Below are positions 1,235 to 29,779 of a stretch of DNA of 64,000 nt, piece after piece (position 1 is the first letter of the stretch; the number at the start of each line of letters is the position of its first letter). Both the position numbers and the translations under genes were made by a program. The stretch is from Candidatus Woesearchaeota archaeon (GTDB lineage: Archaea > Nanobdellota > Nanobdellia > Woesearchaeales > B29-G15). The DNA lies in NCBI GenBank assembly GCA_017610005.1, contig JAFCCU010000001.1:80371-144370 (forward strand). The letters run 5' to 3'. Under the pieces are notes generated by a model. It had not been told where the DNA came from. It was given only the letters and a program-made list of their open reading frames with translations, and did no database searches.

Positions 1235-1957
1235 CTATTTTGCTATTTCCCACATCAAATCAAAATACTTTTTATAAGATTCTGCTAATCTCTCATTGAA
1301 TATTTGGATTACTAATGGAGGTTTACTATAAAAGAACATTGCAACTTCTTTCCCACAGGCATGGGTAGAAATATTAGAATTAAATTTTTCAGGTAAAAAT
1401 TTTGCAGCTGTGAAAGGCATTTTATTTAAGAGTTTGATTCTAGTTGTTGCATTTTCGTTGTAAATATGATTCATAACTACCTTTCTTTTTATTCTTTCTT
1501 TGTGAAAGTGAGGAATTTCAAATTTTATAAAATCATCAACTGCTTTTTTTGGAACGCCCCAGACTCTAATTTCATCATTATAATCTAAAAACCCATAAAG
1601 AACAGACATTAATGCTCTAACTCCTTCTCTAACAACCGCCTCTCCACGTTTTTCCCTACATTCAGAAAGTAAATTTAATTGAGGTAAATGTTTTTTGATT
1701 AATTGTTCTTTTTCTTGAATAAACCTTAATAGATTATTTGGTGAAGCTGCTTCAAAATATTTAGTTTCATATCTTGTAGTGTATGCAACAAGCCCTTTTT
1801 TTACAAGCCTTTCTAGAACTTCATAAACATTACTCCGATTAACTTTACTTTTTTTTGCAACCTCTCCTGCTGTTGCTAAACCTATTTCAAGCAAGGTTAA
1901 GTAAACTTTGCCTTCATTAGGTGAAAAACCAATTTCTTCGAAGAATCCTGGATCCAT
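1235..1957 (-). CDS. TrmB-family transcriptional regulator (N-terminal wHTH plus C-terminal effector-like domain)
   Basis: N-terminus EIGFSPNEGKVYLTLLEIGLATAGEVAKKSKVNRSNVYEVLERLVKKGLV matches the TrmB wHTH pattern. 240 aa. Divergent from the tagged-gene array. Confidence 0.65.
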   Translation of the reverse strand: MDPGFFEEIGFSPNEGKVYLTLLEIGLATAGEVAKKSKVNRSNVYEVLERLVKKGLVAYTTRYETKYFEAASPNNLLRFIQEKEQLIKKHLPQLNLLSECREKRGEAVVREGVRALMSVLYGFLDYNDEIRVWGVPKKAVDDFIKFEIPHFHKERIKRKVVMNHIYNENATTRIKLLNKMPFTAAKFLPEKFNSNISTHACGKEVAMFFYSKPPLVIQIFNERLAESYKKYFDLMWEIAK

Positions 1958-2269: not shown

Positions 2270-2271
2270 TT

Positions 2272-2292
2272 TTTTTCTTTTTGTTTCTCCGA
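2272..2292 (+). terminator. Oligo-T tract after the small membrane protein gene (archaeal-type terminator candidate)
   Basis: TAATTTTTTTCTTTTTGTTTCTCC immediately 3' of the stop codon. Confidence 0.25.
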
Positions 2293-2430
2293 CGCCAAAT
2301 GTGCAAAACCTTTATAAGGCATTGCTGGTTAGTACTTTGTGGTGGTACGGGGATTGAAATTGGGGATATTAAATTATATTACTAAAAGTGAATTTAGTGA
2401 TTTCTTAAATAAAGATTACGGGGCAACAAG

Positions 2431-3678
2431 ATGAGCGATTCCGTAAGACCAAGACTGGATGATTTATTAAGAGAACCAGAAGATTATGGATGGAGATCTG
2501 GACCCCTTGAAGAGATTACTTGGACGTATACAAGGACGTCGCCAGGTGGGGAAACTAAACAATTTAAGAAAACTGAACCAGTTTATTATGTTAGAAAACA
2601 TGAAGTAATTCCAGCAGGCGAACACAAAATTGATTTTGATATTATAATTGAAGAGGGAGGATTTTTACAGGTACGTGCAGGTGCACATTTATATGAGGGA
2701 GAGATGAAATCAATTTGTGTTAGGGGAGGGACTCTACAAATCGAAGGTACTCCTAAAAATAAAGTGATTATTGCACCGATGACGGGTGTAAGAAACTTTT
2801 TAGGACTATCTTTTGAAGATAAATCCAGGGATTCTATCATTAGAAATTGTGATATTTTTGGAGAAACATTTGGGAATCAATTTGTGGAAGAAAATCCTTC
2901 TGATAGGGAGTTTAATATGGCCATGATAAGGCTTAAGGATCATTCCTACGTATCTTTAGATGGTGTCAACATTTTTGTAGGGGATTTGGTTGCTGGAGCA
3001 GTTAAACTCAACGAGTCGGGGATGTCTCTTAGAAATTCACAACTTACTTCCACTTCAAGAAAAGAAAGAAAACCTTATGGAATTTTAGGAGAAGATTCAT
3101 CTGCAGAAATTTACAAAACTGGGTTTAAGGGATTTAGAGAAAGTCCAATTTCTGGAAAAATGAATTTAGTACTTGTTGGAAGCGTAGTAGAAGATTATGA
3201 AGGCCAAAGAAGTTTTATTCATATACAGAAATACAATGTTAAGGCAGAAGATAATACATTTAAGGATTGTATCGTTGATGGAAATTCTAGGCCTGGGGGG
3301 ATAACATTAGATCAAGTTCCTTTTTTTACCTTCCAGTGGAATAAGTACATAAATTGTCGTGCTAATCGGGGAGGAGGAGTAAGAACAAGATTCTCAAAAG
3401 GGACATTTAAAGATGAAGAATTTAGAAAATGTAAGGCTCAAAATGGTGGAGCAGTTCATGTATTAGAGGGGCATGTTAGATTTGAAGATTGTGAATTTCT
3501 TGAAGGATATGCCTCTGAAAGAGGGGGCGCATTATGGTTGCAGGCTGATTCAGAAGGACCCTTGCATGAGGTTGTGAATTGTACAGCTAAAGGGAATACA
3601 GGCAAACTTGCAGGTAGAAATTATTTCCACCATCCTGAGCGCAAACAAGCTACAATCATAGGAGGGATACAAGAATAA
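2431..3678 (+). CDS. Tagged family member 1: N-terminal MSDSVRPRLDDLLREP tag plus right-handed parallel beta-helix protein
   Basis: N-tag, then a WRS motif, IPAGEH-x-IDFDII, AGAHL, and repeated GGxV/GGAL beta-helix-like turns (GGGVRTRF, NGGAVHVLEG, RGGALWLQ). No signal peptide or TM segment. Confidence 0.7.
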   Translation: MSDSVRPRLDDLLREPEDYGWRSGPLEEITWTYTRTSPGGETKQFKKTEPVYYVRKHEVIPAGEHKIDFDIIIEEGGFLQVRAGAHLYEGEMKSICVRGGTLQIEGTPKNKVIIAPMTGVRNFLGLSFEDKSRDSIIRNCDIFGETFGNQFVEENPSDREFNMAMIRLKDHSYVSLDGVNIFVGDLVAGAVKLNESGMSLRNSQLTSTSRKERKPYGILGEDSSAEIYKTGFKGFRESPISGKMNLVLVGSVVEDYEGQRSFIHIQKYNVKAEDNTFKDCIVDGNSRPGGITLDQVPFFTFQWNKYINCRANRGGGVRTRFSKGTFKDEEFRKCKAQNGGAVHVLEGHVRFEDCEFLEGYASERGGALWLQADSEGPLHEVVNCTAKGNTGKLAGRNYFHHPERKQATIIGGIQE

Positions 3679-4664
3679 TGTCAAGTGATGATAGTATCAG
3701 GGGAAGGGTTGAAGATTTATTAAAAATTCCTGGTGAGGGGGTTTCTTCTGAAATGAGCCTCATTTTTGGAGATACCCCTCCCGAAGGGTTTTCAAGAGAA
3801 AATGGAGTAATCTCCTTACCTCATGGGAGTGCATTAGTTAAACCTATTGTTAAATCAAAAACAATTGAAGAGATTTTACTTGATGGTAAAAATTTGCCTA
3901 ATTCTGTAGATTTTGCAAAGAAAAGAAATATATTAAAATTATTACAAGCTGCAAGAGAACAAATTTGTTTAAACGTTCAGGCAAAATATCCTATTCTTGA
4001 ACTTCCAAAAGATAGTTTTGGAAATGATTTACAAGTCATTGATTCAAGTATTGGTCTCTTGCCTGCAATTTTAGAATTTCATCCAGTGAGCATTAAAAAG
4101 GTTTCTGGGAGAATTGAAGTGGTTGACCTTTATACACAAAAAAAGTATTCCTCAAGTCTAGGACATTCATATGAGAACGAAATATTAACCAAAAAAACTT
4201 GTTTTTCAGAAAGTATGGGATCATTGGCTATTGCAGGTGCAATGATGGACCAACTTTCTTTACTTTCAAACACAATAGAAGACAATGGGAGAATTGGATT
4301 TAGGCCAGGCGAAGGAATTGTTGTTTATTTTCCTTTTTGGAAATTCTTAGTAAAGCAAACACTTGACATAATGGGGGAGGATATTTTACAATTCAAGGTA
4401 ATGGGGAAGGGATCAATAGAAAGACATTTTTGGGAACATGAGGCAACTGTTAGTTTCTATCATGGAATTTCTTTTGATGGAATACTCGGGCATTATGAAG
4501 GTTATGATTTTGGATTATCTATGAGGGGTGTTGGTGTAAGTAATTTAATTAAATCTGATAAGGTAACTAATAAACAAATAAGAGCGCATCCCTCTCCTTT
4601 TTTCCCTCCAATCAAGGCCCCGGCGGAGTTAGTTTATTCCTTTACAGGGGGTAGAATAAATTGA
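3678..4664 (+). CDS. Tagged family member 2: N-tag (SIRGRVEDLLKIPGEG) plus unrelated 310-aa body
   Basis: Start overlaps the previous stop (TAATG). The tag is divergent but recognisable. Body has no beta-helix repeats and no TM segment. Confidence 0.55.
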   Translation: MSSDDSIRGRVEDLLKIPGEGVSSEMSLIFGDTPPEGFSRENGVISLPHGSALVKPIVKSKTIEEILLDGKNLPNSVDFAKKRNILKLLQAAREQICLNVQAKYPILELPKDSFGNDLQVIDSSIGLLPAILEFHPVSIKKVSGRIEVVDLYTQKKYSSSLGHSYENEILTKKTCFSESMGSLAIAGAMMDQLSLLSNTIEDNGRIGFRPGEGIVVYFPFWKFLVKQTLDIMGEDILQFKVMGKGSIERHFWEHEATVSFYHGISFDGILGHYEGYDFGLSMRGVGVSNLIKSDKVTNKQIRAHPSPFFPPIKAPAELVYSFTGGRIN

Positions 4665-5005
4665 CAGATTCAGGATCTATTAGACAGAGAATGGATGATC
4701 TTTTACGTATCCCAGAAGTATCTCAAATTGAACAAATTGCAAATACTCAACATGTTGCCCCATCCATTGTAAAACCTAATTGGCCCAACAGAGAATATTA
4801 TGCTATGTTAAATGATTATTGCAAACAGTTACAAACAGAGGCTGAAGAATCAAGAAAAGGGGAAGAGCAAGCACAAGCAATTGGTGCAATTGTTGTTAGC
4901 CTTTGGTATTACGGTGTAATTAAGCCAGCGGCTCCTTTTATTGCTTATGCTGCTAAAAGGATTTTTCATCCTACAAGAAAGGTTATAAAAAATGCCAGAA
5001 AATGA
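4661..5005 (+). CDS. Tagged family member 3: 114-aa protein, N-tag plus C-terminal TM helix (tail-anchored type)
   Basis: MTDSGSIRQRMDDLLRIPE tag. C-terminal hydrophobic AIGAIVVSLWYYGVIKPAAPFIAYAA followed by a basic tail. Start overlaps the previous gene by 4 nt. Confidence 0.5.
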   Translation: MTDSGSIRQRMDDLLRIPEVSQIEQIANTQHVAPSIVKPNWPNREYYAMLNDYCKQLQTEAEESRKGEEQAQAIGAIVVSLWYYGVIKPAAPFIAYAAKRIFHPTRKVIKNARK

Positions 5006-6224
5006 TTCAGTAAGGGATAAGTTGGATCACTTAGTTAGTAGTGCAAGTGATCTTTTATCTTCTCCAATTACAAAGGATATTACACTTCCAATTGATGAGT
5101 ATCATCTTGCAAATCCTATTAGGGTTGCACCTTCAGGATCATTAACAATTCTTGGAGGCACAGTAATTCACAGAGGCCTTAAATCTGGGATTATTGCAGA
5201 AGGCCCAATTTTTATAAAAGGAGAAGAGGAAAATGAAGTTCTCTTTCCCTCAAAAAATAATAAAACTGGGGCTCCTGGAATTTTAATTAGCGGAGAAGCT
5301 GCTAAAAGTTCAGAATTAAAACATTTAATCATAGGTGGGGGGAATGATCCAATTTTACATCGATATAGGATTAAAGGCTTAAATGGATTTATAGGAGATT
5401 CTGCGATTAATGTTGTTGATTCAAAAGCCAAATTGGAGGATGTGCAAATTGAAGACTGGAGAGGGGTTTCTTCCATCAGTTTTTTAAGATCAAAAGGAGA
5501 AATGACAAGAGTGCAAGTCCTGAGAGGAGGAGACATTTCAAATGCTCCAAAGTACAATGGTGCAGGGATTAGTATCCACCAATCTACTGTAAATATAGAA
5601 AATGGTTTAATTAGGTTGGTGGAAGGACAAGGGCTTATTGCAGTTGAAAGTGCAGTTTTTATAGAAAATATTGATGTTACAGAATGTCTAGGCGCAGGAA
5701 TTGTTTATTCAAGATCTTCTGGGGCAATTTTGGGTGGAAATTCCCGACAAAACGGAATAGGTATATTTGTCTATGAGGGGTTTGATTTTAATATTAAAAA
5801 TTTTGTTATCAAAAGAAACAAAAAATCTGGCGTAGTTCTTGTTTGCCCTCAAGAAGTCGTGTTGACTGAGTGTCCAATCAGATCAAATGGAAGAGCAAAA
5901 TATGGGGGAGGGGTTTATTTAGATTTAGGAAAAGAAGGCACAAGCAGAGCTGAAATTCTTGGATGTGAAATAATTGGAAACTCAGCAAAATGTGGTGGAG
6001 GAGTTGTAATAAAAGGAATTGGAAATGGTACTTATAGTTTTGAAGGGACAATCATTGATAGGAATACTGTAACAGAAAAAGTAGGAGGAGTGCTCTTTGA
6101 AGCAAGTAAGATTGGAAATTTAGAGGAATTATTTAATGGGACTATGGGCGAAGAGAACATCCCTACTAAGTTTGGAGTAGAAGTAGGAATTACTGGAGGA
6201 TTTGATTATGGGCCGTACAAATAA
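4992..6224 (+). CDS. Tagged family member 4: N-tag (DSVRDKLDHLVSS) plus parallel beta-helix protein
   Basis: Repeated GGGVYLD, CGGGVVIKG and VGGVLFEAS turns, Gly/Asn/Ile-rich. Overlaps member 3 by 14 nt. Confidence 0.65.
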   Translation: MPENDSVRDKLDHLVSSASDLLSSPITKDITLPIDEYHLANPIRVAPSGSLTILGGTVIHRGLKSGIIAEGPIFIKGEEENEVLFPSKNNKTGAPGILISGEAAKSSELKHLIIGGGNDPILHRYRIKGLNGFIGDSAINVVDSKAKLEDVQIEDWRGVSSISFLRSKGEMTRVQVLRGGDISNAPKYNGAGISIHQSTVNIENGLIRLVEGQGLIAVESAVFIENIDVTECLGAGIVYSRSSGAILGGNSRQNGIGIFVYEGFDFNIKNFVIKRNKKSGVVLVCPQEVVLTECPIRSNGRAKYGGGVYLDLGKEGTSRAEILGCEIIGNSAKCGGGVVIKGIGNGTYSFEGTIIDRNTVTEKVGGVLFEASKIGNLEELFNGTMGEENIPTKFGVEVGITGGFDYGPYK

Positions 6225-9087
6225 AGATTCAGTAAGAAAGGATTTAGATGATTTAGTTAGTCTCCCTCCTATTGCTCAACCTTCTAAAGATAATATAGCT
6301 AGTAGTCCTCATGTTACTCCACCATATCAAAAGAAAAATTTTTTTAAAAGATATCCAAAAATTTCTACAGCATTGGCAGTTGGGACAGTGGGATTATTGC
6401 TCTGGGGAACTTTTGGCATTATGAAAAGGTTAAGCCAAACTAATTTAATAAACCTCCCAGCAGAAACTTATGAGGTTGACCCATATGTAAGAACAGAAAA
6501 TGAATTACAGGACCTTACAACTCAAGTTCATAATTTTAAAACAGGAATTTTATCAGGAACAGTAACAGAGGCAAGTTATAATTCTCTTCTCAGCCAAATC
6601 AATTTCAAACCAGAATACCAAGAATTAACAAAGGGACTTGAAACTGCGTGGTTTGATGGAGTAACTCTACCTGGTTATCTTGCTGACCTACAAACTGCAA
6701 GAGACCATTTAGAAGCTGATGATATTAACGCTACAAATTTGGCTATTGATTCGCTTGAACAAAGATTGCAAGAAGATATTGGAGAACATCCAAATTTATT
6801 AACAATCCAATCTGAAATAACACAATTAAGAGAATTAACTATTCCATATTCTATTCTTGAAAATAGATTTGAAGCCCTAGATGAAATGGTTGATGATGAC
6901 AACCTCAAAAGTGCATTAGTTTTCTCATCAACATTACTTACAGATATTCAATTATTTATTAATCAAAAGGACTACCTCCCTGCTAAAGTTTTATTGCAAG
7001 AAGCACAATCTTACCAGTTAAATTCAATTGAGATTCCCATTGGGGAAGGGGGCCTAATTGCCTTAAAAAATCAAGCTGAAGGGGGGCGTTACGAAGATGT
7101 GCTTGAACAATTTGAATCCTTATATCAATTTTTATCAATGAGCGAATCCCCTGAGCTTGTTGCTCTTGCCCTAGAAACAGGTTCATTCTTTTTTGAGGGT
7201 TATCTTGTCCCCATGAATCGAGCAATAGTGGGATCAATATATCAAGACTTATTTCCAGCTAACAACTTTGATAGGGCAAGGGAAATGACTGATTCTATGG
7301 TGGAAGAAGTAAGGGCATTTAGACAAGAATATAATTTTGGAATATTAAACACTTTTGCTCAAGAACTGGACCAATTAGTTGATTCAATCAATTCCGCTGA
7401 AGAAGAATACTTGAGGGTCGAAGCATTAGGTGATGTTGTTCAAACTGTGGAAATGGTTTATGCATTATCTAATGCAGGGAATTATGATTTGGCTTATGAA
7501 CGATTTCAAGAGGCAGAAACAGAGTTACTTAAAATTAATACAATAGATGCAATCACCCTTAGAAAAAATATGAGAACTTTTGCAGAGGCAAATTTTTTAA
7601 GAGACGTTTTAACAAGGGCGCAGGGATCAATTGGTGAATTATTTGCTGAAGGGGAAGTCATTAATGCCTTGCAAGCAAATTATAATTTGGAGAAAGAATT
7701 GGGCAAAATAGAAGATGGCTCAGAGATAAGAAGTTTTAGGGATCAAATGGTGGAAGCAAGTGGTGCCCAAAGGGCTTCAATTATTAGCGCTTATTCAAGG
7801 AAAATATGGGCAGACACTGGAAATCATGATATTTCTCTTTCCATTAGACAAAGAAGTATGTGGACGAATGTGGACGGAGTTCCAAAAGCAGTATCTTTAT
7901 TCTTGCCCGGCATGGTTGCAGTTTCTCCTGGTGAGTCTCATGTTATTTTAGGTAATCTTCTATCTGAATCCTATTTATCAGATCCAAATAGATCTGGATA
8001 TATCTTTAACCCTTATATGTTTAAAAATTTTGTAATCGCTGATGCTGATGGGTCTCTTAGGAATAATGAGATAAATATTATTGCGTCTCTTTTTAGCAAT
8101 TTGGTTAAAAGAAGTATTGGTAGAGATGTTGTAACTTATTACAATTGGCAAGAAGGAGCCTTATTTGGTGACTTGGATATTCCTGAGATTTCCTGGGAAA
8201 GTGAAAATTCGTTTTGGATGGCAGCAGGACTTAATAGATATTTAATTACATTTAATCCTGAAAATAATTCTATTGTTGACATTGTGGAAGAACATTACGG
8301 TCGTGACTGGAATTATTTTGATTTGGGGGATAAAGATCACATTGAAGAGATTTTAACAGTTAACCCAGATAATTGGGATATTGATTTAGAAGATATTGAT
8401 GGTTCTAAAGAGATGATCGATCTGGGAAGGCAGTTTGGTGCTTCTTTGGCTATATTAAAATTTTATGATGCTAAGAGATTGGCTGAGGCAATTGTGGCCT
8501 ATGATGGCCAACCCGGCCTTAGTACTGCGGAAATAAACACAATAGAACGGGCTTCTTATGAATTAGAAAAAATAATAATGCCTAATCTTAGGTTCCTTAG
8601 CGCATTTAACCAAGGCACCATTTACCCAAACATTGAACAGAGACAAGATGGTCTTTATTCAATAATTGGTTCCAGAGAAATTGAGCTTTTTGATGGAACT
8701 CCTTGCAGGTATGGGGTTTCCCCTGATGCCTCAAGAGTTGCAATTGTAAGAATGACAAATGAGGGGTGGTATTTTTCTGATTTTATTGTTGTTGATATTG
8801 ATGGGAGGGACCGTGTTGATAACTCCGCAATTCTAAATATGATAAACCAAGTTGAGGATAGCAGGGAAGGGGAAGCTTCGTGTGATGTTATTCAATTTGT
8901 ACCATTTGAGTGGGTCGATAATGATACGATTAGGGCAAATTATCCAAGAAGTGTGTCAGATGTGTGTTTAATAGATGTTAATAGAGATAATCAAATTGTT
9001 TACTTTATAGACCCAGTTTATACAAATAAGGAGTGGACTGAAAGAGAGATAAGAGACGAAATGGGGGCCAATTACCCTGGGAATTAA
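6202..9087 (+). CDS. Tagged family member 5: 961-aa type-II membrane protein. Cytoplasmic N-tag, signal-anchor TM, large helical/mixed ectodomain.
   Basis: NKDSVRKDLDDLVSLPP tag. KKNFFKRYPK followed by hydrophobic ISTALAVGTVGLLLWGTFGIM, giving N-in topology. C-terminus ...EMGANYPGN. Confidence 0.7.
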   Translation: MIMGRTNKDSVRKDLDDLVSLPPIAQPSKDNIASSPHVTPPYQKKNFFKRYPKISTALAVGTVGLLLWGTFGIMKRLSQTNLINLPAETYEVDPYVRTENELQDLTTQVHNFKTGILSGTVTEASYNSLLSQINFKPEYQELTKGLETAWFDGVTLPGYLADLQTARDHLEADDINATNLAIDSLEQRLQEDIGEHPNLLTIQSEITQLRELTIPYSILENRFEALDEMVDDDNLKSALVFSSTLLTDIQLFINQKDYLPAKVLLQEAQSYQLNSIEIPIGEGGLIALKNQAEGGRYEDVLEQFESLYQFLSMSESPELVALALETGSFFFEGYLVPMNRAIVGSIYQDLFPANNFDRAREMTDSMVEEVRAFRQEYNFGILNTFAQELDQLVDSINSAEEEYLRVEALGDVVQTVEMVYALSNAGNYDLAYERFQEAETELLKINTIDAITLRKNMRTFAEANFLRDVLTRAQGSIGELFAEGEVINALQANYNLEKELGKIEDGSEIRSFRDQMVEASGAQRASIISAYSRKIWADTGNHDISLSIRQRSMWTNVDGVPKAVSLFLPGMVAVSPGESHVILGNLLSESYLSDPNRSGYIFNPYMFKNFVIADADGSLRNNEINIIASLFSNLVKRSIGRDVVTYYNWQEGALFGDLDIPEISWESENSFWMAAGLNRYLITFNPENNSIVDIVEEHYGRDWNYFDLGDKDHIEEILTVNPDNWDIDLEDIDGSKEMIDLGRQFGASLAILKFYDAKRLAEAIVAYDGQPGLSTAEINTIERASYELEKIIMPNLRFLSAFNQGTIYPNIEQRQDGLYSIIGSREIELFDGTPCRYGVSPDASRVAIVRMTNEGWYFSDFIVVDIDGRDRVDNSAILNMINQVEDSREGEASCDVIQFVPFEWVDNDTIRANYPRSVSDVCLIDVNRDNQIVYFIDPVYTNKEWTEREIRDEMGANYPGN

Positions 9088-9120
9088 AATGAGAATTATG
9101 GGGCAAATGAGGAATAAGAA

Positions 9121-10194
9121 ATGAGTGATTCAGTAAGAAAACAACTGGATGATCTATTAAGAGAATCAGCTAAAGAAGGAGTTCTTAGAGGTGAGAGGCC
9201 TTTAGAAAGGGAAAGACTCTTAGATGGTTCAAAACCAGCTACGCAATATATATCTCCAGGAGGACCATATGGTAAAAAGGAAGTAGGCAGAAGAATTCTT
9301 CTCCCAGGAGATCACATCTTTAATCATATTATAAATGTTAACGGAAACCTTGAACTACAAGCAGGGGCACATTTAATCCCTGGTCCAGAAGGAGGGTTAA
9401 ATGTTGAAGGAAAGTTAATCTTCCTGGGTACAGAAGATAATCCTGTTATAGTTGAACCAGCAATGGGATATTGCCAGGGCATTGTCGTTAGGGAAGGAGT
9501 TGTGCATTTTGAACATGCCCAGATTATTGGAATGAGTAAGCTTGATATTGTTAAAGGGGTAACAAGAATACTTGGCAAAACAGGATTAAAAATGATTGGT
9601 TCGTATGGGTCATTAAAAGACACCGAGTTTACAGAAAGTGCGTATATTTCAATGGATGGAGAAGGTTCAACTGTTAGGTTGATGAGAGTAAACGCACATA
9701 ATAATGGTGGATTTGTTGGTTGTCCAATCTTACAATTCTTCCGAGGTAGTCTTTTTGCTGAAGAGCTTGGTATGTACAACAATAGGTCAGAATATTCAGG
9801 GTTATCAATTGCGATGATGAAAGCTGAAATTGTTAGAGCTCATCTGAGATCTCAAAGAACAACCGCGTTGCGTGTGTATTCTAGTCAATTATTAATGGAG
9901 GACTCTATTATAGCGGAAAATAGTGCCCGTTATGGGGCTGGTTTATCTATTGAAGAAAATTCATTGGTTGAATTGTTGGACACTATTGTAAGAAGTAATG
10001 ATGCAAAAGTGGCTGCTGCAGGAACATATTTGCAAGAGTCAATATTAAGATTAAAAGGAACAACTAGATATGAGAAAAACAGGGCCCCTATTGCAGAAGC
10101 AATAGGTTTTGTAGGAAAACCTCCAAAGTTGGAAGATTCAGTACATATAGATGGTGAAATCTTAGCTATAGAAAGAATAACTGGGAGGTCCTAA
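9121..10194 (+). CDS. Tagged family member 6: MSDSVRKQLDDLLRES tag plus beta-helix-like protein
   Basis: The 5' 45 nt are near-identical to member 8. LLPGDHIFNHIINVNGNLELQAGAHLIPGP is shared with members 1 and 7-9. Confidence 0.7.
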   Translation: MSDSVRKQLDDLLRESAKEGVLRGERPLERERLLDGSKPATQYISPGGPYGKKEVGRRILLPGDHIFNHIINVNGNLELQAGAHLIPGPEGGLNVEGKLIFLGTEDNPVIVEPAMGYCQGIVVREGVVHFEHAQIIGMSKLDIVKGVTRILGKTGLKMIGSYGSLKDTEFTESAYISMDGEGSTVRLMRVNAHNNGGFVGCPILQFFRGSLFAEELGMYNNRSEYSGLSIAMMKAEIVRAHLRSQRTTALRVYSSQLLMEDSIIAENSARYGAGLSIEENSLVELLDTIVRSNDAKVAAAGTYLQESILRLKGTTRYEKNRAPIAEAIGFVGKPPKLEDSVHIDGEILAIERITGRS

Positions 10195-10245
10195 GAAAAA
10201 TCAAGTTAAAGACATTTATCACAGGATGTTGACTAAAAGAATATT

Positions 10246-10335
10246 GTGAGAAGAAATGGGAACCAATTACCCTGGGAATTAAAATGAGAATTATCAAGCA
10301 AATGGGGAAAACGAAATGAGTGATTCAGTAAGGGA
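10246..10335 (+). repeat. Duplicated gene-junction fragment: a copy of 9052-9140 (3' end of member 5, intergenic spacer, 5' end of the next gene)
   Basis: gaaatgggaaccaattaccctgggaattaaaatgagaattat... versus gaaatgggggccaattaccctgggaattaaaatgagaattat... A relic ...EEMGTNYPGN* reading frame is preceded by a stop. Confidence 0.8.
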
Positions 10336-11629
10336 GAAGTTGGATGACATTGTAAGGGCCCCAATTAGAAAAGGTTGGAGAAGTCATCCTTGTACTACTA
10401 GCTCGTGGGATGTTACAAAAGGTGGGAGAAAAGTTTATTCTTATAAGGCTGATACTTATACTGTAAGGGGAGAAGAGACAATTCCCGCAGGAGATCATTT
10501 TTTCGATTATAACATTAGTGTTCTAGAAGGCGCAGTATTAACAATTGATCCTGGCGCAAGGCTTTTTTTCGCATCTTTATGTGGGATACAAGTAGTTGAT
10601 GGGAAGCTTGTTAGTAGGGGTGAAAAGAATAATAAGGTCAAAATATATCGAATGAGGGGATCACTAAATGGTTCTGCAATAAAGTTTTTTGGAGAAAAAG
10701 AAACTTCTTTATTAAGACATACTGAGATTCATGGAGAAGAAATATCATTTGGGCCGGAAAATAACCTTGATCATATTTTGGAATATTCTCCTGAATTAAT
10801 CAAATTGAATGTTGCGCATGTAGACCTAGAAGAAACCACTCTATTTATGGGAGAGTATTGTAATGAAGCAATAAATTTAACCACAAGATCTGTTCTAAAA
10901 ATGAAAGGAGGAGGAATAGTAGGAGGCAAGACTCCACTTGGAGCTACAGTAAGAGGAATATCTGGTATTGGGTCAAGGTTACTAATTGATGGGGCGTCAT
11001 TTAAAGATATTAATGGAGATGTATTTGCAAATCTAATTGATTGTTCAACTACAGTAAGATCAAGCACATTTGAAAATTTAAGAGGAAATCTTTGGGGAGG
11101 AGTATTTCATGTAGGAAAGGGCACACTCACAGTTACTGATTCAACATTTGTTAAGGATGGATCTAATAGTATGGGGGGAGTTTATTATTTAGCTGGAGGA
11201 ACAATAAGATCAAGAGGGAATACTTATGAGGAGTGTTTTTCTAAACAAGGGGGAGTAATTTATGTTTTAAATGGGTCTGCATACTTTGGAGAGGACGATT
11301 TTCTTTCAAGTCGGGGAGAAAATGGAGGGGTTGTTTATGTATCGTATACTTCAAAAGAGCTTGATGGGGGAAGAGTAGAATTAATTTCTTGCAATGGAAA
11401 TAATAATCATGCAAAAATGGGAGCCATAGGGTATTTAGAAGGTGGCGGATTAATTGTTAAACAGGGGAAATATAGATGGAACTTAGCTAGTGAAGCAGGA
11501 AATTTAGCTTATTGGAGAGACCCAGCCTTTGTTGCTTTTGAAGATGTTAATTATTTGACTATCTCCCCAAATAATTTTGCCCACAGAAGAGGTTTTATTG
11601 GACCCATAGAAAAGAGGAGGAAAATTTGA
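10316..11629 (+). CDS. Tagged family member 7: MSDSVREKLDDIVRAP plus WRSH motif plus parallel beta-helix
   Basis: TIPAGDHFFDYNISVLEGAVLTIDPGARLFF; GGVFHV, GGVYYLAGG, GGVIYVLNG, GGVVYVSY repeats. C-terminus NNFAHRRGFIGPIEKRRKI. Confidence 0.75.
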   Translation: MSDSVREKLDDIVRAPIRKGWRSHPCTTSSWDVTKGGRKVYSYKADTYTVRGEETIPAGDHFFDYNISVLEGAVLTIDPGARLFFASLCGIQVVDGKLVSRGEKNNKVKIYRMRGSLNGSAIKFFGEKETSLLRHTEIHGEEISFGPENNLDHILEYSPELIKLNVAHVDLEETTLFMGEYCNEAINLTTRSVLKMKGGGIVGGKTPLGATVRGISGIGSRLLIDGASFKDINGDVFANLIDCSTTVRSSTFENLRGNLWGGVFHVGKGTLTVTDSTFVKDGSNSMGGVYYLAGGTIRSRGNTYEECFSKQGGVIYVLNGSAYFGEDDFLSSRGENGGVVYVSYTSKELDGGRVELISCNGNNNHAKMGAIGYLEGGGLIVKQGKYRWNLASEAGNLAYWRDPAFVAFEDVNYLTISPNNFAHRRGFIGPIEKRRKI

Positions 11630-11651
11630 CAATGAAAAGGAGGCATAACCA

Positions 11652-12977
11652 ATGAGTGATTCAGTAAGAAAACAACTGGATGATTTATTAAGAGAACCAG
11701 TTGGAAAAGATTGGAGAAGTCATGATAGCGCATTAAACACTTGGTCTCTTAAAAAAGGAGAAGAAGAATTTTTCTCGTGGCAAGCAAAAACCTACACAGT
11801 GAGAGGAAATGAAACAATTCCCGCAGGAGATCATTTTTTCGATTATAACATTAGTGTCCTAGAAGGCGCAGTATTAACAATTGATCCTGGAGCCAGAATT
11901 TTTTTCGCATCACTTTGTGGGATTGAAGTAAATAATGGAAAAATTGTTTCTAATGGAGAAGAAGATAATCCTGTTGAAATATACAGGATGCAAGGATCTA
12001 GACAAGGATCCTCAATCAAATTTTTTGGAAATCAGGAAACTTCTGTGTTGAGACATACTGAGATTCATGGTGAAGAGATTTCATTTGGCCCTGTAGATGA
12101 GCTTGAACATATAGTAGAGCATACTCCCCCTTTAGTTAAACTTAATGAGGCTCATGTGATATTTGAAGATTCAACTATTTTTTTAGGACAGTATTGTAGC
12201 AAGGGAATTGACTTCAGACAAGATTCTCATTTGGCTATCAAGGGAGGAGGGATAGTAGGAGGGCCAGCCCCCATAGGAGTTAATTTGATTGGAATGGCTG
12301 GAAAAGATTCTAGGCTTCAAATTGAAAGGGCATTATTTAGAGATCTTAAAGGGCAAGGGTTAGCAAGTTTGACTAACTGCACTTCTGAAGTAAAATCTAG
12401 CACTTTTAGGGATATTATTGCAAATTCATTAGGGAGAGGGTTCACCATAGGGCCTGGAACTCTCACAGCTACAGGTAACACCTTTCTTAGAGTTAGTTCT
12501 GATGACTATGGAGGGGTTTTTTATGTTTCAGATGGCAAATTAAAATCAAGAGGAAATAGGTATGAACAATGTTCTTCTAAAGAAGGGGGAGTGGTTTATG
12601 TTTCTAAAAATGGACATGCTTTCTTTGAAGAAGATGATTTTATTAAAAATCAAAGTGAATCTGGAGGCGTAGTTTACATTGGCTTTACTCCAAAAGAAAA
12701 ATTTGATGAGAGGGGCCATGCAAGATTAATTTCATGTACTGGAAGAGGCAATAATGCAACAAATGGAGGAATTGCATACTTGTTAAGTGGAGGATTAATT
12801 GTTGAAGGAGGAAAATACCGAGAAAATAAATCTAAGGAATCTGGAAATTTAGTGTTTTGGCAAGGGGATTGGACCCCTGTTTCGTTTAAAGATGTAAACT
12901 ATTTGGCAATTTCCTCAAATAATTTTGCACATAGAAAAGATTTTTTTGGAGCAATAGAAAAGAAGAGGAAAATTTGA
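11652..12977 (+). CDS. Tagged family member 8: tandem paralog of member 7
   Basis: About 80% identical to member 7 over the first ~150 aa and at the C-terminus (NNFAHRKDFFGAIEKKRKI), divergent in the middle. Same GGVxYV repeats. Confidence 0.75.
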   Translation: MSDSVRKQLDDLLREPVGKDWRSHDSALNTWSLKKGEEEFFSWQAKTYTVRGNETIPAGDHFFDYNISVLEGAVLTIDPGARIFFASLCGIEVNNGKIVSNGEEDNPVEIYRMQGSRQGSSIKFFGNQETSVLRHTEIHGEEISFGPVDELEHIVEHTPPLVKLNEAHVIFEDSTIFLGQYCSKGIDFRQDSHLAIKGGGIVGGPAPIGVNLIGMAGKDSRLQIERALFRDLKGQGLASLTNCTSEVKSSTFRDIIANSLGRGFTIGPGTLTATGNTFLRVSSDDYGGVFYVSDGKLKSRGNRYEQCSSKEGGVVYVSKNGHAFFEEDDFIKNQSESGGVVYIGFTPKEKFDERGHARLISCTGRGNNATNGGIAYLLSGGLIVEGGKYRENKSKESGNLVFWQGDWTPVSFKDVNYLAISSNNFAHRKDFFGAIEKKRKI

Positions 12978-12999
12978 CAATGAAAATGAGGAATAACCG

Positions 13000-14223
13000 A
13001 TGAGTAATTCAGTAAGAAAAACACTGGATGATCTATTAAGAGAACCAGTTAGAAATGATTGGAGGAGTCATGACCTAATCATACAAACATGGTCATTTAC
13101 TGAGCAGGTTTCAATAGATTCACAGATAGAACATACCCTTGATTTACCCACTTATGTTGTCACAGGTAATGAAACAATTCCTGCAGGAGATCATCCAATA
13201 GACTATAATATTGTAGTAGCAAGTTCAGGAAAATTAACAATTGAAGATGGAGCCAAGTTATTTTTTGATGATATGTTTAGTTTAACTTCAGATGGTGAAG
13301 TTCAAGTTTTAAGCTCTCCGGAAAGAAGAGTATTGTTTGCCCCGATGAAGGGTGTTAAGAACTTCAAGGGGGTTTGGTTAAATGGGCGCCAAAGAAAATA
13401 CCTCTTGCAGCATGTTGATTTTACTGATGATACTAGGTTTAGCCCATATACCGCAAAGAATGTTAGGAACTTTCAAATGCCTCAAAGGTTACTCCATATA
13501 GAAGATGCTGAAGTGGATTTAAGAGATGTGACATTTACGCTTGGAAGATTTTCGCAAGATGCATTAGCCATGTTTAATGCCACAGTAAATCTCTATGATC
13601 CTAAATTTTTCACAAAAGGTGAGGCATTAAAATGGATGACTAAAAATGGGGAAATGGAGGGACACGGGGGAATTTATGGACATGATTCAAAAGTTTTAGT
13701 AGAAAGAGGCTTATTTGATGGATGCGTTGGGCGAATTGGAGGAGCATTGAGGCTTGATGATTGTGATACTACCCTTAAAAATACTAAATTGATTAATAGT
13801 AGAAGTAGGCTTTGGGGTGGCGGTTTAAGTGCATCTGGGGGTTCATTAAATCTATTGGGATGCGAGTTATTGGATAATGAAGGAGCTATGATGGGAGGGG
13901 CGGTATCTGCTGAGAATTTAAGAATATTAGTAGAGGGAGGAGTTTATAGAAGAAATCATTCAGAGTTTGATGGAGGTGCATTTTGCCTTAGAAATGTAAA
14001 TGGAAAAATTGTAAAAGTAAGGGTTGAGAGAAATGGATCCTATCATGGTGCAGGGTATTTCTTAGATGATTGTAATCTTGTTTTTGAAGGGGGAGATATA
14101 GAATATAATGAAGGTCATTTTGGTGCAGGGATATATTGGGAGGGGAAAAAACCAAAAATTAGAGGAACAAAAGTTAGAAGTAATATTCCAAAAGAAGATC
14201 AGATTTATTGTGGGGATGTTTAA
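13000..14223 (+). CDS. Tagged family member 9: MSNSVRKTLDDLLREPVRNDWRSHD plus beta-helix-like protein
   Basis: Shares the tag, WRSHD and TGNETIPAGDHPIDYNIVV with members 7 and 8. GGALRLDD, WGGGLSASGG and GGAVSAENL turns. The 7/8 and 8/9 junctions are homologous at DNA level. Confidence 0.7.
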   Translation: MSNSVRKTLDDLLREPVRNDWRSHDLIIQTWSFTEQVSIDSQIEHTLDLPTYVVTGNETIPAGDHPIDYNIVVASSGKLTIEDGAKLFFDDMFSLTSDGEVQVLSSPERRVLFAPMKGVKNFKGVWLNGRQRKYLLQHVDFTDDTRFSPYTAKNVRNFQMPQRLLHIEDAEVDLRDVTFTLGRFSQDALAMFNATVNLYDPKFFTKGEALKWMTKNGEMEGHGGIYGHDSKVLVERGLFDGCVGRIGGALRLDDCDTTLKNTKLINSRSRLWGGGLSASGGSLNLLGCELLDNEGAMMGGAVSAENLRILVEGGVYRRNHSEFDGGAFCLRNVNGKIVKVRVERNGSYHGAGYFLDDCNLVFEGGDIEYNEGHFGAGIYWEGKKPKIRGTKVRSNIPKEDQIYCGDV

Positions 14224-14226
14224 AAA

Positions 14227-15591
14227 ATGATAGATGATCAAGTAAGAACAAAAATGGATGATTTATTGAGAATTCCAAAAAAACCATGGTGGAAATACCT
14301 AGGATTTTATGCAGGTATTCCTGCAGTTATTCTTGTTGCAGTTTCTGCCTGGTATTTTACAAGACCAGAAGAACCTGTTGTTCAAGATCCAGTTGTTATA
14401 ACTGCCCCTACTGAAGAAGCACCCCCTATAGATACATTGATTGGTCCAATTGCCACCCCTCAATTTAGCCCAATCGAATCTGGATATAGGGAGTTACTTT
14501 TATTATTTGAACAAGAGCATTATGATCTTATTAGGGAAAGCGGTCCGGAATTATTAGAATTGGCAAGAGATGAAGGCTCAGAGCTTTTAGGAAACATTGA
14601 AAAATTACTTTCAAATGCAAATTTAGAGTATTATCTTGTAGAAATTGAAAAGAGATCACAAAATCAATATACCTTACTTGGGATACAATCCCTTGATGTT
14701 ATTATTGGAGAAATCGATGAAAAAGCAGGCCTTCAGGATGCACTTTTAGAAGCTTACAGGGCAAAGTATGACCTAATTAAAGATTCATTATCTCAAGGTT
14801 ATATCGCTCTCACCAAGAGCCAGTTAGAGGGAATCTTGGAAGATGCTGCATATCTAAGGCAAAGGATTGGTGGGCCAGAGATTAGGTCTCTCCTAGGCGA
14901 AATACAGATAACTTATGACCATCAAATTTTACTTCCTGAACTTGAGGGAGAATTGTACGCCATTACTAAAAAATCTAATCCCGGTTACACAGATTTATCC
15001 TCTGCTCAAATTATCCTTGATTCACTAAAAGCAATTGATGACAATTCAACCTCTCGCTCATCAAGAGAGGCCATATCTGATGTTGAAGATTTTATTGAAA
15101 CATTTTCTCCAACTGTAGAAGTTAGAAATCTTTATTTAACACTGGCCTCCCAAGTATCAAACAGCAATTTTAGTGAAGCAGAAACCACTTATCAACAACT
15201 CTTAACAATCGCCAATTTAAATCCTTCAAGATCTATGGGGAATCTCATGGAAGGAATAGATTCTTATTATATTGAGAATTTAAAAATTCCAGAATTTAAA
15301 AGAAGACTTGAAGAATTATCCACTTCTGGACAAATGTTTTTAGATTCATTATTTTTAAATTGGGTTGGATCTAATGTGACTCCTGTTGCAGGGCCAGGAC
15401 TTAGAATATTATTTGTTGAAATAGATGAATTAAATGAGAAATATTCAGATCCAAGACTTCAAGATTTAAGTAAACAAACTCTTGATCAGATAGGTAGAGA
15501 TCAAATATCATTGATTGGATCGGTAGGAGTAATGTTGGGGTATGCTGTTTTAGGGGTCATGGTGGTAGGAAGTATTGTTAATGATTATTAG
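14227..15591 (+). CDS. Tagged family member 10: N-tag (QVRTKMDDLLRIPKKPWWKY) plus signal-anchor TM, large helical ectodomain and C-terminal TM
   Basis: Tag followed by KK, then GFYAGIPAVILVAVSAWYF (N-in TM). C-terminal IGSVGVMLGYAVLGVMVVGSIV hydrophobic segment. Confidence 0.65.
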   Translation: MIDDQVRTKMDDLLRIPKKPWWKYLGFYAGIPAVILVAVSAWYFTRPEEPVVQDPVVITAPTEEAPPIDTLIGPIATPQFSPIESGYRELLLLFEQEHYDLIRESGPELLELARDEGSELLGNIEKLLSNANLEYYLVEIEKRSQNQYTLLGIQSLDVIIGEIDEKAGLQDALLEAYRAKYDLIKDSLSQGYIALTKSQLEGILEDAAYLRQRIGGPEIRSLLGEIQITYDHQILLPELEGELYAITKKSNPGYTDLSSAQIILDSLKAIDDNSTSRSSREAISDVEDFIETFSPTVEVRNLYLTLASQVSNSNFSEAETTYQQLLTIANLNPSRSMGNLMEGIDSYYIENLKIPEFKRRLEELSTSGQMFLDSLFLNWVGSNVTPVAGPGLRILFVEIDELNEKYSDPRLQDLSKQTLDQIGRDQISLIGSVGVMLGYAVLGVMVVGSIVNDY

Positions 15592-27716: not shown

Positions 27717-28244
27717 TTAATTCTTAGCATTTACAATAGGGGATGCAACACTTCTGTACCATCTAATTAATCTTTGTAAGGGTTTAAAATTATTAACTAA
27801 GATTCCATTTAAATGGTCAAACTCATGCTGCACAAATTGGGCTAATCTCCCTTTCATCTCAGCTTGAAACTCATTTCCGTCAATATCTTGGAAAGTTACA
27901 TTGACTTTATATGCTCTTAATTTAAATCCACTATATCCTATTTGACAGCTTTCATAGATTGGATACCTAACGCCCTGAAGTCTCACTTCTGGATTTACCA
28001 TAGTGATAGTGTCTTCGAGGGTAGGTGCTTCAGAAAACCAGGTAATATTCGCAGGTTTATCATTAACAACAACAAATAATCGCTTTAAATACCCTATTTC
28101 AGGCCCAGAAGCACCCCCTAAATCATATTTTCTAATTAATTCCTTAAGATAATCTACTTTTCCATATACCTTATCTGTTTCGAAATCTACTTCTTCGCAG
28201 ATTGTATGTAATTGTTCTAGTGTTGCTAATCCCATATTTCTCAA
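27717..28244 (-). CDS. def: Peptide deformylase homolog
   Basis: Motif 3 QHEFDHLNG, an EGCLS-like ESCQIGYSG, and a GΦGΦAAPQ-like GASGPEIGY. Confidence 0.65.
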   Translation of the reverse strand: MRNMGLATLEQLHTICEEVDFETDKVYGKVDYLKELIRKYDLGGASGPEIGYLKRLFVVVNDKPANITWFSEAPTLEDTITMVNPEVRLQGVRYPIYESCQIGYSGFKLRAYKVNVTFQDIDGNEFQAEMKGRLAQFVQHEFDHLNGILVNNFKPLQRLIRWYRSVASPIVNAKN

Positions 28245-28439
28245 ATTTTTAATTGAATCCTCACTTTTAAACTTTTTTATTGATTTTTTTAATTCTTGTG
28301 TATATTGAAAAGAATTACCTAGACTTATATTCTTTAAAATATATATTAAAATAGACTATAGTGTTCTAAAATATATAATATAAAACTATCTTTCTAGACA
28401 TTATTTTTAATAATATTGTTTTTTATAATATAATAAAAC

Positions 28440-28500
28440 CTTTAATAAATAATTAAAAATATTAGCCTTAATTATAATTAAAAGATTTAATTAAAAATTA
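28440..28500. repeat. Extremely AT-rich tract 3' of the integrase containing the palindrome TAATTAAAAGATTTAATTA
   Basis: Same palindrome class as the array at 29780-29995. Confidence 0.5.
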
Positions 28501-28546
28501 ATAATATTAACCATTCCTCAAAAACTAGTTTCTCGTCTAAAAACTA

Positions 28547-29353
28547 TCATAAATCATCAAGTGGACTTCTTAATTTTTTTAGCTCACTAGTACTTACTTG
28601 AGTATAAATTTGGGTAGTCTGGAGGTTAGAATGGCCCAATAATTCCTGTATTTTACGGATATCTGTACCGTTTTCAAGCATGTGGGTAGCAAAAGAATGG
28701 CGCATTGTATGGGGTGTTACATGCTTCATAATACCTGCTTTTCTAGCAGTTCTGGCAATTATTTCTTGGATATTTCTAGGGCTTATTGGCCCGTTGTGGC
28801 CAGGAAATAGATAAATTGATTTATTTTCTTTCAAATACTCTTCAATTTCGGTGCGAAGACATTCTGAGAGCAGTATTAGGCGATCTTTAGCACCCTTACC
28901 ACTACGAACCCATCCAATACCTTCTGATAATTCAAGTTCATTTACCTTAAAATTGCATAATTCAGATACTCTTATGCCTGTTGAATAAAGAAATTTGATT
29001 ATTAATTTGGTTTTAAGATAATTTGCAGCTTTTATTAAATTTTTAATTTCTTGTTTAGATAAGACAGTTGGGAGTTTTTTTGGGGCTTTTGGAGTTTTTA
29101 ATGTAACAACATTTTTTTTTAAAATTTCATCAAAATAGAATTTCAATGCAGCTTTAACTAATGCGATAGTTCTTACACTTGAATTTTTTTCATGCATTAA
29201 GTAAGCAATGTAATTTTTAACATCAGTTTCAGAAATCTCATTTTCAGTTTTTTTAATAAAATGCAGAAATTTTACATTATGATAAAAATAGGATTTTATT
29301 GTTTCTTTAGAAAAACCCCTTAATTTTAATTCTGTTATTAAATTTTCAAGCAT
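28547..29353 (-). CDS. Tyrosine recombinase/integrase (XerA/XerC-like)
   Basis: C-terminal HTMRHSFATHMLENGTDIRKIQELLGHSNLQTTQIYTQV carries the R…HxxR…Y catalytic signature. N-terminal SAM-like core-binding domain. Confidence 0.8.
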   Translation of the reverse strand: MLENLITELKLRGFSKETIKSYFYHNVKFLHFIKKTENEISETDVKNYIAYLMHEKNSSVRTIALVKAALKFYFDEILKKNVVTLKTPKAPKKLPTVLSKQEIKNLIKAANYLKTKLIIKFLYSTGIRVSELCNFKVNELELSEGIGWVRSGKGAKDRLILLSECLRTEIEEYLKENKSIYLFPGHNGPISPRNIQEIIARTARKAGIMKHVTPHTMRHSFATHMLENGTDIRKIQELLGHSNLQTTQIYTQVSTSELKKLRSPLDDL

Positions 29354-29779
29354 TTTTCACCTCTTTTATAGCTCCAAGCGTGATAACACGCGTGTAACAG
29401 TCATTATACGAACGTTTAGTATTTAATACTTTCGTTTGTCGTCGGAGAAGCCATTCTAGCCCCATATTTACGCTAAAAAGGTTAGGGTAATGGAATAAAA
29501 GAAGGGTTGAAAAGATGTGTTGTTTTGAAAAATAATCAAAATTGTAAGAAACCAAAAAAAGTGGGTTTTTTGATAATTTCATTAAAAAGTAGAATTTCTT
29601 AATTATCATCAAATTTTAACAAAATTGGAAAAAATAAAAATAAAACAACAAACTTCTGTATTTCGAACTTTTGTATAAAACAACAAAAAGTGAGATCTTT
29701 GGAAAAAAAGTATTAAAACAAGTATATAATTCTTTTCAATATTGTAAAAAATATAATTGCTTTCTAAATACCTATGATC

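Follow-up and report, generated by a model that had tools for sequence, protein, structure and literature searches.

How does a row of neighboring genes come to carry near-identical 5′ ends and duplicated gene junctions around bodies that have diverged, and does this pattern mark a locus built for programmed variation? We addressed this question in a 64,000-nucleotide stretch of the genome of a Candidatus Woesearchaeota archaeon (contig JAFCCU010000001.1, positions 80,371 to 144,370), referred to here as the window. In this archaeal DNA, ten plus-strand open reading frames (ORFs), numbered members 1 to 10, lie in tandem at positions 2431 to 15591 in an operon-like arrangement, and all ten products share a short N-terminal peptide, the tag. 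An earlier reading of the letters and translations (the sequence-only reading) had proposed recombination within the array and, from this, a contingency or antigenic-variation locus under diversifying selection. The first proposal is supported: the exchange points fall at the conserved 5′ ends, member 8 is composed of segments with different nearest relatives, and synonymous divergence is low in the tags of members 1, 6, 8, and 9. The second is not supported. The row probably arose by unequal crossing-over and short-tract gene conversion seeded by the tag-coding sequence, that is, by ordinary gene-family evolution and not by programmed switching. What the DNA shows directly is the mosaic structure of member 8, the repeated segments, the lower synonymous divergence in the tags, and the lack of hardware for programmed variation.

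Tag-coding DNA is more alike than the gene bodies behind it

The tag is a motif of about 14 residues, DS[VI]Rxx[LMV][DE]DL[LV][RKS]xP, that begins within the first six residues of the products; a six-frame translation scan found it nowhere else in the 64 kb. The sequence-only reading had noted that the 5′ ~45 nucleotides (nt) of members 6 and 8 are nearly identical, beyond what protein constraint requires. This observation is borne out and extends to members 1 and 9. Counted from their start codons (ATG 9121 in member 6 and ATG 11652 in member 8), the two genes show a single difference in the first 45 nt and two in the first 48 nt. Thirteen of 14 tag codons are the same at identical amino acids, compared with 40 to 60% in the gene bodies, a level close to the expectation from codon usage alone. 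A 39-nt tag pattern matches only members 1, 6, 8, and 9, with no or one mismatch, where 0 matches are expected by chance. Across the motif in all ten members, 238 codon-identical pairs were counted, compared with 164 ± 15 when synonymous codons were redrawn from the usage of the window; none of 5,000 simulations reached 238. Individual codons follow the same trend. CTG makes up 2% of the leucine codons of the window, yet it stands at the same motif position in four members, and GTA, which accounts for 30% of valine codons, is used in 8 of the 8 members with valine in the motif.

Synonymous differences are likewise concentrated outside the tag. Among members 1, 6, 8, and 9, the proportion of synonymous differences (pS, Nei-Gojobori) is 0.00 to 0.34 over tag codons 1 to 16 and 0.64 to 0.68 in the bodies (one-sided Fisher P values of 5e-5 to 0.04). 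Every pair that includes member 7, in contrast, has a tag pS of 0.74 to 0.90, which is saturated, with the amino acid motif retained. By these codon comparisons, members 1, 6, 8, and 9 form a homogenized tag group. Member 7 and the genes of a metagenome contig described below (L008) keep the peptide with freely varying codons, so identity at the DNA level is not functionally required. Since the peptide can be maintained with any codons, the near identity in members 1, 6, 8, and 9 is best read as recent shared ancestry or exchange of segments.

Two gene junctions are duplicated at offsets of one unit length

Two junctions occur twice in the array, as the sequence-only reading had also claimed. 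For the junction between members 5 and 6, copy 1 (positions 9033 to 9179, plus strand) comprises the last 55 nt of member 5, a 33-nt spacer, and the first ~20 codons of member 6. Copy 2 (10228 to 10374, plus strand) comprises a decayed relic of a member-5-type tail (10228 to 10282, with an in-frame stop), the spacer, and the first ~20 codons of member 7. The copies, at an offset of 1195 nt, are 76% identical (44 of 55 positions in the member 5 tail, 27 of 33 in the spacer, and 32 of 45 in the first 15 codons), and their flanks are at background identity (15/60 and 19/60). The relic frame upstream of member 7 reads ...LTKRIL(stop)EEMGTNYPGN(stop) and has no gene body; about 80% identical to the member 5 tail and 55 nt long, it is the only incomplete piece in the array. 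An exact 32-mer, CCAATTACCCTGGGAATTAAAATGAGAATTAT, occurs only at 9068 to 9099 and 10263 to 10294.

The segments around the junctions of members 7 and 8 and members 8 and 9 are homologous as well. Copy A (11530 to 11725, plus strand) contains the member 7 tail, a 22-nt spacer, and the first 25 codons of member 8; copy B (12878 to 13073, plus strand) contains the member 8 tail, a 22-nt spacer, and the first 25 codons of member 9. At an offset of 1348 nt, these copies are 86% identical (83 of 100 positions in the 3′ tail, 19 of 22 in the spacer, and 67 of 75 in the first 25 codons), with background identity outside. Both offsets equal the length of one unit, and in both pairs the homology ends 60 to 75 nt into the downstream gene, just past the tag. 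The repeats are diverged (76 to 86%) and not identical, which makes an assembly artifact unlikely.

As a separate observation, the 32-mer precedes the start codons of members 6 and 7 by 22 to 53 nt, within copies that are otherwise ~76 to 80% identical, and holds the near-palindrome AATTACCCTGGGAATT together with an A/T-rich, TATA-like stretch. From its sequence, it could be an internal promoter, a regulator site, or a recent conversion tract.

Member 8 joins a member-9-like 5′ end to a member-7-like body

The nearest relative of member 8 (11652 to 12977, plus strand; 441 amino acids [aa]) is not the same throughout the gene. When members 7, 8, and 9 are aligned by codon, member 8 sides with member 9 at 21 sites and with member 7 at 10 over the first ~96 nt; past this point, it sides with member 7 at 366 sites and with member 9 at 104 (Fisher P = 2e-7 for the switch, before correction for the breakpoint scan). 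The member-9-like 5′ end thus spans ~60 to 96 nt, and the body behind it shares 57% aa identity with member 7. At codons 17 to 25, members 8 and 9 read DWRSHD, member 7 reads GWRSHP, and the distant member 1 reads GWRSGP; because member 7 agrees with member 1 here, the signal common to members 8 and 9 is not just divergence specific to member 7. For members 8 and 9, the synonymous substitution rate (dS) is ~1.2 overall but falls to 0.25 in the first 25 codons.

The bodies of members 7 and 8 tell of an older relationship. Their nucleotide identity per 25 codons runs 0.76, 0.51, 0.88, 0.83, 0.61, and 0.83, then 0.55 to 0.72, and ends at 0.81 to 0.93. The sequence-only reading had described the pair as ~80% identical at both ends and divergent in the middle. 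That description holds only approximately; the interior is uneven, with values from 0.51 to 0.88. Codons 25 to 50, directly past the tag, retain 24% aa identity. Diversifying selection finds no echo in the codon-wise comparison: dS is ~1.06, the nonsynonymous rate (dN) is ~0.30, and dN/dS is ~0.28, and in no 25-codon interval does the nonsynonymous proportion exceed the synonymous one, in a comparison of two sequences whose synonymous sites are near saturation. These values indicate that the duplication of members 7 and 8 is old and that the genes are under purifying selection. By their sequences, the tag and possibly the whole 196-nt junction shared by 7/8 and 8/9 look younger than the bodies, an age difference that calls for later short-tract conversion or for constraint on the spacer.

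A probable recombination history seeded by the tag

Because the tag is kept at the protein level, the DNA that encodes it is the one stretch of homology common to diverged neighbors and hence a substrate for homologous recombination. Unequal crossing-over (nonallelic homologous recombination) between the tags of neighbors would duplicate or delete whole gene units. We infer an order of events that begins at the junction of members 5 and 6. One or more earlier events would have duplicated the member 5 tail and spacer in front of member 7, where the copy has since decayed to the relic; the simplest such history would be a tandem duplication starting 55 nt before the end of member 5, with at least one tag-to-tag exchange that put the member 7 body behind the second copy. 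A crossover between the tag of a member-7-like gene (A) and the tag of member 9 (B) would yield gene A, a chimera with the head of B on the body of A, and gene B. Such a crossover would place the 5′ end of member 9 on the body of member 7 to give member 8, and the 7/8 junction would be duplicated as 8/9. Later, short-tract gene conversion would have homogenized the first ~48 nt of members 1, 6, 8, and 9.

Several points weigh against this account. The history rests on one genome, from which the exact order and number of events are not recoverable. Tag counts are small, as each pair has ~10 synonymous sites, and they come from pairs that are not independent of one another. A single crossover predicts equal age for the tag and the body of member 8; the tag and the noncoding spacer (19/22) look younger than the bodies (dS ~1), so conversion or synonymous or regulatory constraint must be added. 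We infer, moreover, the cytoplasmic location of the tag, the operon status of the row, and its promoter (see below). Finally, members 6, 7, 8, and 9 all form, in their minimum-free-energy folds, a stem of 6 to 7 bp, AUUCAG(U)/(A)CUGGAU, that would explain the rare CUG.

This stem leads to an explanation in which the nucleotide conservation of the 5′ ends reflects an RNA- or DNA-level function, such as a start-codon hairpin, a target of a small RNA or RNA-binding regulator, or a rare-codon pause, and is not a trace of recombination. Besides the CTG that recurs in four members, codons ending in G encode the leucine at this position in 6 of the 7 members that have leucine there, versus 15% usage; the stem extends over the AUG in member 8 (z = −2.6, positions 11650 to 11690), and 82% of the cells in the stem are paired across the ten members. 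However, shuffled sequences reach 78% pairing, 39 of 500 shuffles attain the observed value, and only one double change occurs; RNAalifold found no consensus structure in the ten 5′ regions, and fold z-scores were insignificant in 4 of the 5 members folded, member 8 being the exception. Conservation of this kind also sits poorly with the free codon variation behind the peptide in member 7 and the L008 genes, and it leaves the duplicated upstream gene tails and the relic unexplained. We therefore think it unlikely as the explanation; an RNA-level contribution alongside recombination is possible but is not needed. A simpler history, which we judge improbable, would have the genes duplicated in tandem and then diverging independently, without any recombination at the tags; junctions and tags would look alike only because constraint is strongest there (C-terminal motif, Shine-Dalgarno motif, and tag). 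The tails of members 7 and 8 do encode a conserved C terminus (72 to 80% aa identity), the spacers carry Shine-Dalgarno-like motifs, and identity varies strongly along the body too (0.51 to 0.88). Protein constraint, though, cannot yield a pS of 0 to 0.1 in the tags of members 6, 8, and 9 while that of member 7 is saturated. Nor does it account for the 46 of 48 nt that members 6 and 8 have in common, given that their bodies can be aligned over only ~180 to 200 N-terminal residues, at ~27% identity; for a noncoding relic that is 80% identical to the member 5 tail while the bodies next to it, those of members 6 and 7, share no more than 27% protein identity; or for the switch in the nearest relative of member 8 along its length.

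The recombination footprints themselves are real, and they count in favor of a programmed cassette or antigenic-variation locus, in which exchangeable surface-protein cassettes would be reshuffled frequently via their conserved ends so that an exposed β-helix coat varies. The conserved ends and more variable interior fit this picture, including the 24% aa identity of members 7 and 8 right after the tag, as do the GGx[ILV] coil repeats of ~25 residues, which resemble those of chlamydial polymorphic membrane proteins (Pmp) and are typical of surface adhesins (PMC10715098, PMC11166332). The array, however, has no division into an expression site and silent cassettes: all ten members are complete ORFs with their own start codons, and members 6 to 9 have Shine-Dalgarno-like motifs. 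The rest of the 64 kb contains no fragments of the tag or of cassettes; simple-sequence repeats and meaningful inverted repeats are absent, and the only recombinase of the window is an XerA-type housekeeping enzyme 13 kb away. The divergence of members 7 and 8 (dS ~1.06, dN/dS ~0.28, no interval with a nonsynonymous excess) points to an old duplication under purifying selection, the decay of the relic (80% identity, in-frame stop) fits old and rare events, and surface exposure is unproven for β-helix members that lack a signal peptide. The sequence-only proposal of a contingency locus is for these reasons very unlikely to be right. A shufflon driven by XerA was also considered and was dropped, as there are no inverted repeats and all genes are in direct orientation. 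We thus retain unequal crossing-over and gene conversion at the tags as the probable origin of the array.

The tag heads proteins of several architectures

Members 1, 4, 6, 7, 8, and 9, six of the ten, are paralogous right-handed β-helix proteins. Apart from members 7 and 8, the β-helix pairs share 20 to 39% aa identity, some over part of their length only. Member 1 (2431 to 3678, plus strand, as are all members; 415 aa; tag MSDSVRPRLDDLLREP) scores 24.3 bits against the Pfam Beta_helix model, slightly under its threshold of 25.9 bits, and member 4 (4992 to 6224; 410 aa; tag MPENDSVRDKLDHLVSS) passes with 41.3 bits and also matches NosD above the cutoff (24.2 bits); members 6 to 9 are unmatched. 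Member 6 (9121 to 10194; 357 aa; tag MSDSVRKQLDDLLRES) is a divergent β-helix paralog whose tag DNA is near-identical to that of members 8 and 9. Member 7 (10316 to 11629; 437 aa; tag MSDSVREKLDDIVRAP) is the β-helix protein with saturated tag codons relative to all other members, and member 9 (13000 to 14223; 407 aa; tag MSNSVRKTLDDLLREP) completes the set. GGx[ILV] motifs recur with a period of ~25 residues in the C-terminal halves of the β-helix members, in which FxxN motifs are rare to nearly absent.

An AlphaFold2 (AF2) model of member 8, built on five paralogs, shows a long parallel β-helix (predicted local distance difference test [pLDDT] score, 80; predicted template modeling score, 0.82) preceded by a short N-terminal helix at residues 3 to 12, modeled with low confidence, and a β-hairpin region. 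A Foldseek search of the PDB with this model returned AlgG alginate epimerase, PL6 lyases, and tailspikes with probabilities of ~1.0, along with polygalacturonases and adhesins; judged from the model, these matches reflect the generic β-helix fold. The six β-helix members have no hydrophobic stretch in their first 40 residues (maximum Kyte-Doolittle 19-mer values of −0.96 to 0.65) and no twin-arginine RR motif. By these sequence criteria, they lack a signal peptide of the Sec, Tat, or class III type.

Three of the remaining members (3, 5, and 10) contain hydrophobic or transmembrane segments. Member 3 (4661 to 5005; 114 aa; TTG start; tag TDSGSIRQRMDDLLRIP) contains a C-terminal segment of moderate hydrophobicity. 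In members 5 and 10, a transmembrane segment follows soon after the tag. Member 5 (6202 to 9087, with an ATG at 6208; 959 to 961 aa) carries the tag at residues 7 to 20, a single transmembrane segment at residues 54 to 72 counted from ATG 6208, and a large C-terminal domain. Member 10 (14227 to 15591; 454 aa) has the tag MIDDQVRTKMDDLLRIP and, directly after it, a transmembrane segment at residues 25 to 43, with a second at the C terminus (433 to 451). Member 2 (3678 to 4664; 328 aa; tag MSSDDSIRGRVEDLLKIP), whose start overlaps the stop of member 1, has no recognizable fold; its single-sequence AF2 model (pLDDT 32) is unusable as fold evidence, and searches of PDB sequences with members 5 and 2 returned nothing useful. 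NCBIfam, PHROGs, and PADLOC hold no family for any of the ten members, and with zero PHROGs or PADLOC matches, an origin of the array in a virus or a known defense system was rejected. We also observed that members 5 (6208 to 9087) and 10 (14227 to 15591) are weakly similar, with ~21% identity over 165 to 246 aa (E ~0.01). On this resemblance, they would be old paralogs, and the row may derive from a duplicated block of β-helix genes and a membrane protein.

The tag itself has a helical hydrophobic moment of 0.43 to 0.69 and is predicted to be an amphipathic helix, usually ended by proline. Positive charges ahead of the posttag membrane segments of members 5 and 10 would place it in the cytoplasm. 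It matches no Pfam, NCBIfam, PHROG, or PADLOC model, and we found nothing relevant in the literature on a matching motif or family. RiPP (ribosomally synthesized and posttranslationally modified peptide) leader peptides were considered and dropped, since the tag bearers are proteins of 114 to 961 aa. From these properties, the tag would act as a common peptide for docking or sorting and bind one cytoplasmic partner in all ten products. In a more specific form of this idea, the tag, with its core [VI]Rxx[LM]DDL[LV]R, would be a previously undescribed archaeal sorting or assembly signal that docks the six signal-peptide-less β-helix proteins and three membrane-anchored proteins of one operon on a common partner, for example, to export proteins or assemble the envelope by an unconventional route; on this view, the shared module would have left the recombination footprints as a side effect. 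We hold this more specific form only tentatively, and it is doubtful on present evidence.

One outside locus carries the tag in variant form

When members 8 and 5 were used as queries in word-indexed searches of 5.8 billion proteins, the only matches were proteins encoded on the 217,591-bp source contig; for member 5, the only match was member 5 itself. An exhaustive HMMER profile search gave 29,443 matches; the best 150 were mostly giant repeat β-helix proteins that match the C-terminal coils. Among these best 150 was one full-length relative, P0054 (435 aa; E = 4e-50), which JGI names a "predicted outer membrane repeat protein" and to which member 9 is the nearest of the ten (30% identity). 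P0054 sits on L008 (JGI 3300048658, contig Ga0502859_0017574, positions 1 to 2373), a 2.4-kb metagenome contig with a G+C content of 44%. This contig holds three tandem β-helix genes, and genes 2 and 3 begin with ...[YG]TLDDRLRAGI.... These two genes differ synonymously at 4 of 10 shared motif codons. In a joint alignment with L008, the L-D-D of the tag and the R that follows are invariant; the tag persists in this distant relative as LDDxLR. Tandem genes with a variant tag on L008 indicate that both the tag and the tandem arrangement predate this genome and that the tag is under selection at the protein level.

Other searches added no related locus. In genome contigs, a profile scan and a degenerate DNA pattern for DSVRxxLDDLLR gave nothing usable; seven DNA-pattern matches there were set aside as chance occurrences in noncoding frames of bacterial genomes. 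Two scans of metagenome contigs and one viral scan found no related locus, which is weak evidence of absence, as each used one or two peptide patterns and the source contig itself was not returned. A 51-aa protein that clustered with member 1 (P0157) was discarded for lack of any visible resemblance to it. The NAD synthase, Rad3/XPD-type helicase, and SurE of the window have no cluster mates at 90% identity among ~15 billion proteins, and the host seems to belong to a very sparsely sampled archaeal lineage or else to be masked in the collections scanned.

Genomic setting of the array

The ten-gene row is a lineage-restricted feature of an archaeal chromosome. Archaeal markers in the window include LonB (TIGR00764, 826 bits), XerA_Arch (271 bits, over the cutoff), TrmB, PAC2, a family B polymerase, and a Rad3/XPD-type helicase; the G+C content is ~34%, and neither tRNA genes nor Rfam elements were found in the window. 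Intergenic spacing within the array, taken from the coordinates, is −17 to +33 nt, except for 121 nt before member 7. The Shine-Dalgarno-like motifs of members 6 to 9 are of the GAGG/GGAGG type, with GGGG in member 7. The upstream noncoding region (2271 to 2430, plus strand) contains, read from its sequence, a TATA-like box, CTTTATAAGG, near 2310, which is a candidate operon promoter. The row would be a single operon driven from this element, and a divergent TrmB-family regulator (1235 to 1957, minus strand) possibly controls it.

Between this regulator and member 1, at ~2038 to 2270, lies a small ORF with a TTG start and AAGGAGGTG ahead of it; its product of ~76 residues is apparently a two-helix membrane protein (...AALAWNDTIKAIF...) and lacks the tag. 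Farther downstream, a very A/T-rich stretch (28000 to 30000; G+C content, 26%) adjoins the XerA-type tyrosine recombinase (28547 to 29353, minus strand), and includes a 93-nt tandem repeat at 29807 to 30004; an AbiEii-family toxin gene (30212 to 31156) follows. This A/T-rich stretch may contain the dif region or form the border of a mobile element. Positions 27717 to 28244 (minus strand) encode, in surroundings that are otherwise archaeal, a peptide-deformylase-like protein (Pfam Pep_deformylase, 71 bits; under the NCBIfam equivalog cutoffs). To our knowledge, archaea do not formylate initiator methionine, which makes such a gene unusual.

Discussion

The recombination mechanism proposed here is of a kind already known, and the gene family it has acted on is uncharacterized and very sparse in the databases searched. 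Same-strand paralogs, junction duplicates offset by one unit, a chimeric member, and a short homogenized tract of low divergence are features that the array shares with tandem multigene families under concerted evolution. Bacterial surface-lipoprotein families, with conserved 5′ or signal-peptide regions and divergent bodies, are an example of concerted evolution by unequal crossing-over and gene conversion. Unlike in those families, the homogenized tract here encodes a charged amphipathic N-terminal peptide and not a signal peptide, it stands on unrelated folds, and the host is an archaeon. Antigenic variation by gene conversion, as in Borrelia vlsE with its silent vls cassettes and Neisseria pilE/pilS, and contingency loci are the better-known cases of programmed change. 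The vls and pilE/pilS systems resemble the array in having related segments with conserved ends and variable interiors that recombine through the conserved parts. They differ from it in that the array has no expression site, silent cassettes, or hypermutable repeats, and its duplicates are old and under purifying selection.

Cargo proteins of bacterial microcompartments carry N-terminal encapsulation peptides, in which a short N-terminal amphipathic helix and linker occur on several proteins of one operon; the likeness is one of functional analogy only, and some tag bearers here, unlike such cargo, are membrane proteins. No shell-protein family (PF00936 or PF03319) was among the Pfam matches of the ten members or of 38 flanking ORFs, and we know of no microcompartments of the encapsulation-peptide type in archaea. 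Polymorphic toxin systems combine conserved N-terminal trafficking regions with recombining C-terminal cassettes (PMC3482391). The array likewise has a conserved N-terminal module and variable downstream parts diversified by recombination, but its conserved part spans only ~14 residues and its bodies are entire proteins that adopt several folds; toxin and immunity domains are absent, as are stand-alone 3′ cassettes. The β-helix members recall chlamydial Pmp and POMP-repeat proteins in their right-handed helix of ~25-residue GGx[ILV] coils and in their multiparalog clusters (PMC10715098, PMC11166332). In contrast to the Pmp proteins, they have no Sec signal peptide, are only 357 to 441 aa long, rarely contain FxxN, carry the N-terminal tag, and come from an archaeon. 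No array member matched Chlam_PMP (Pfam) or the POMP repeat (NCBIfam) at an E value of ≤0.1; an autotransporter barrel was not specifically searched for.

The array provides a clean and datable archaeal example of how a short conserved coding module gives diverged neighbors enough homology for genes to be duplicated and re-headed. The tag is the more interesting and still unexplained element, as ten adjacent proteins of at least three architectures begin with one N-terminal peptide, and the tagged β-helix proteins are of a usually extracellular kind yet have no signal peptide. If the sorting-signal reading is true, the shared tag would let new bodies plug in behind it. As a targeting or docking signal, the tag would point to an uncharacterized protein-sorting or assembly system in a poorly sampled archaeal lineage.

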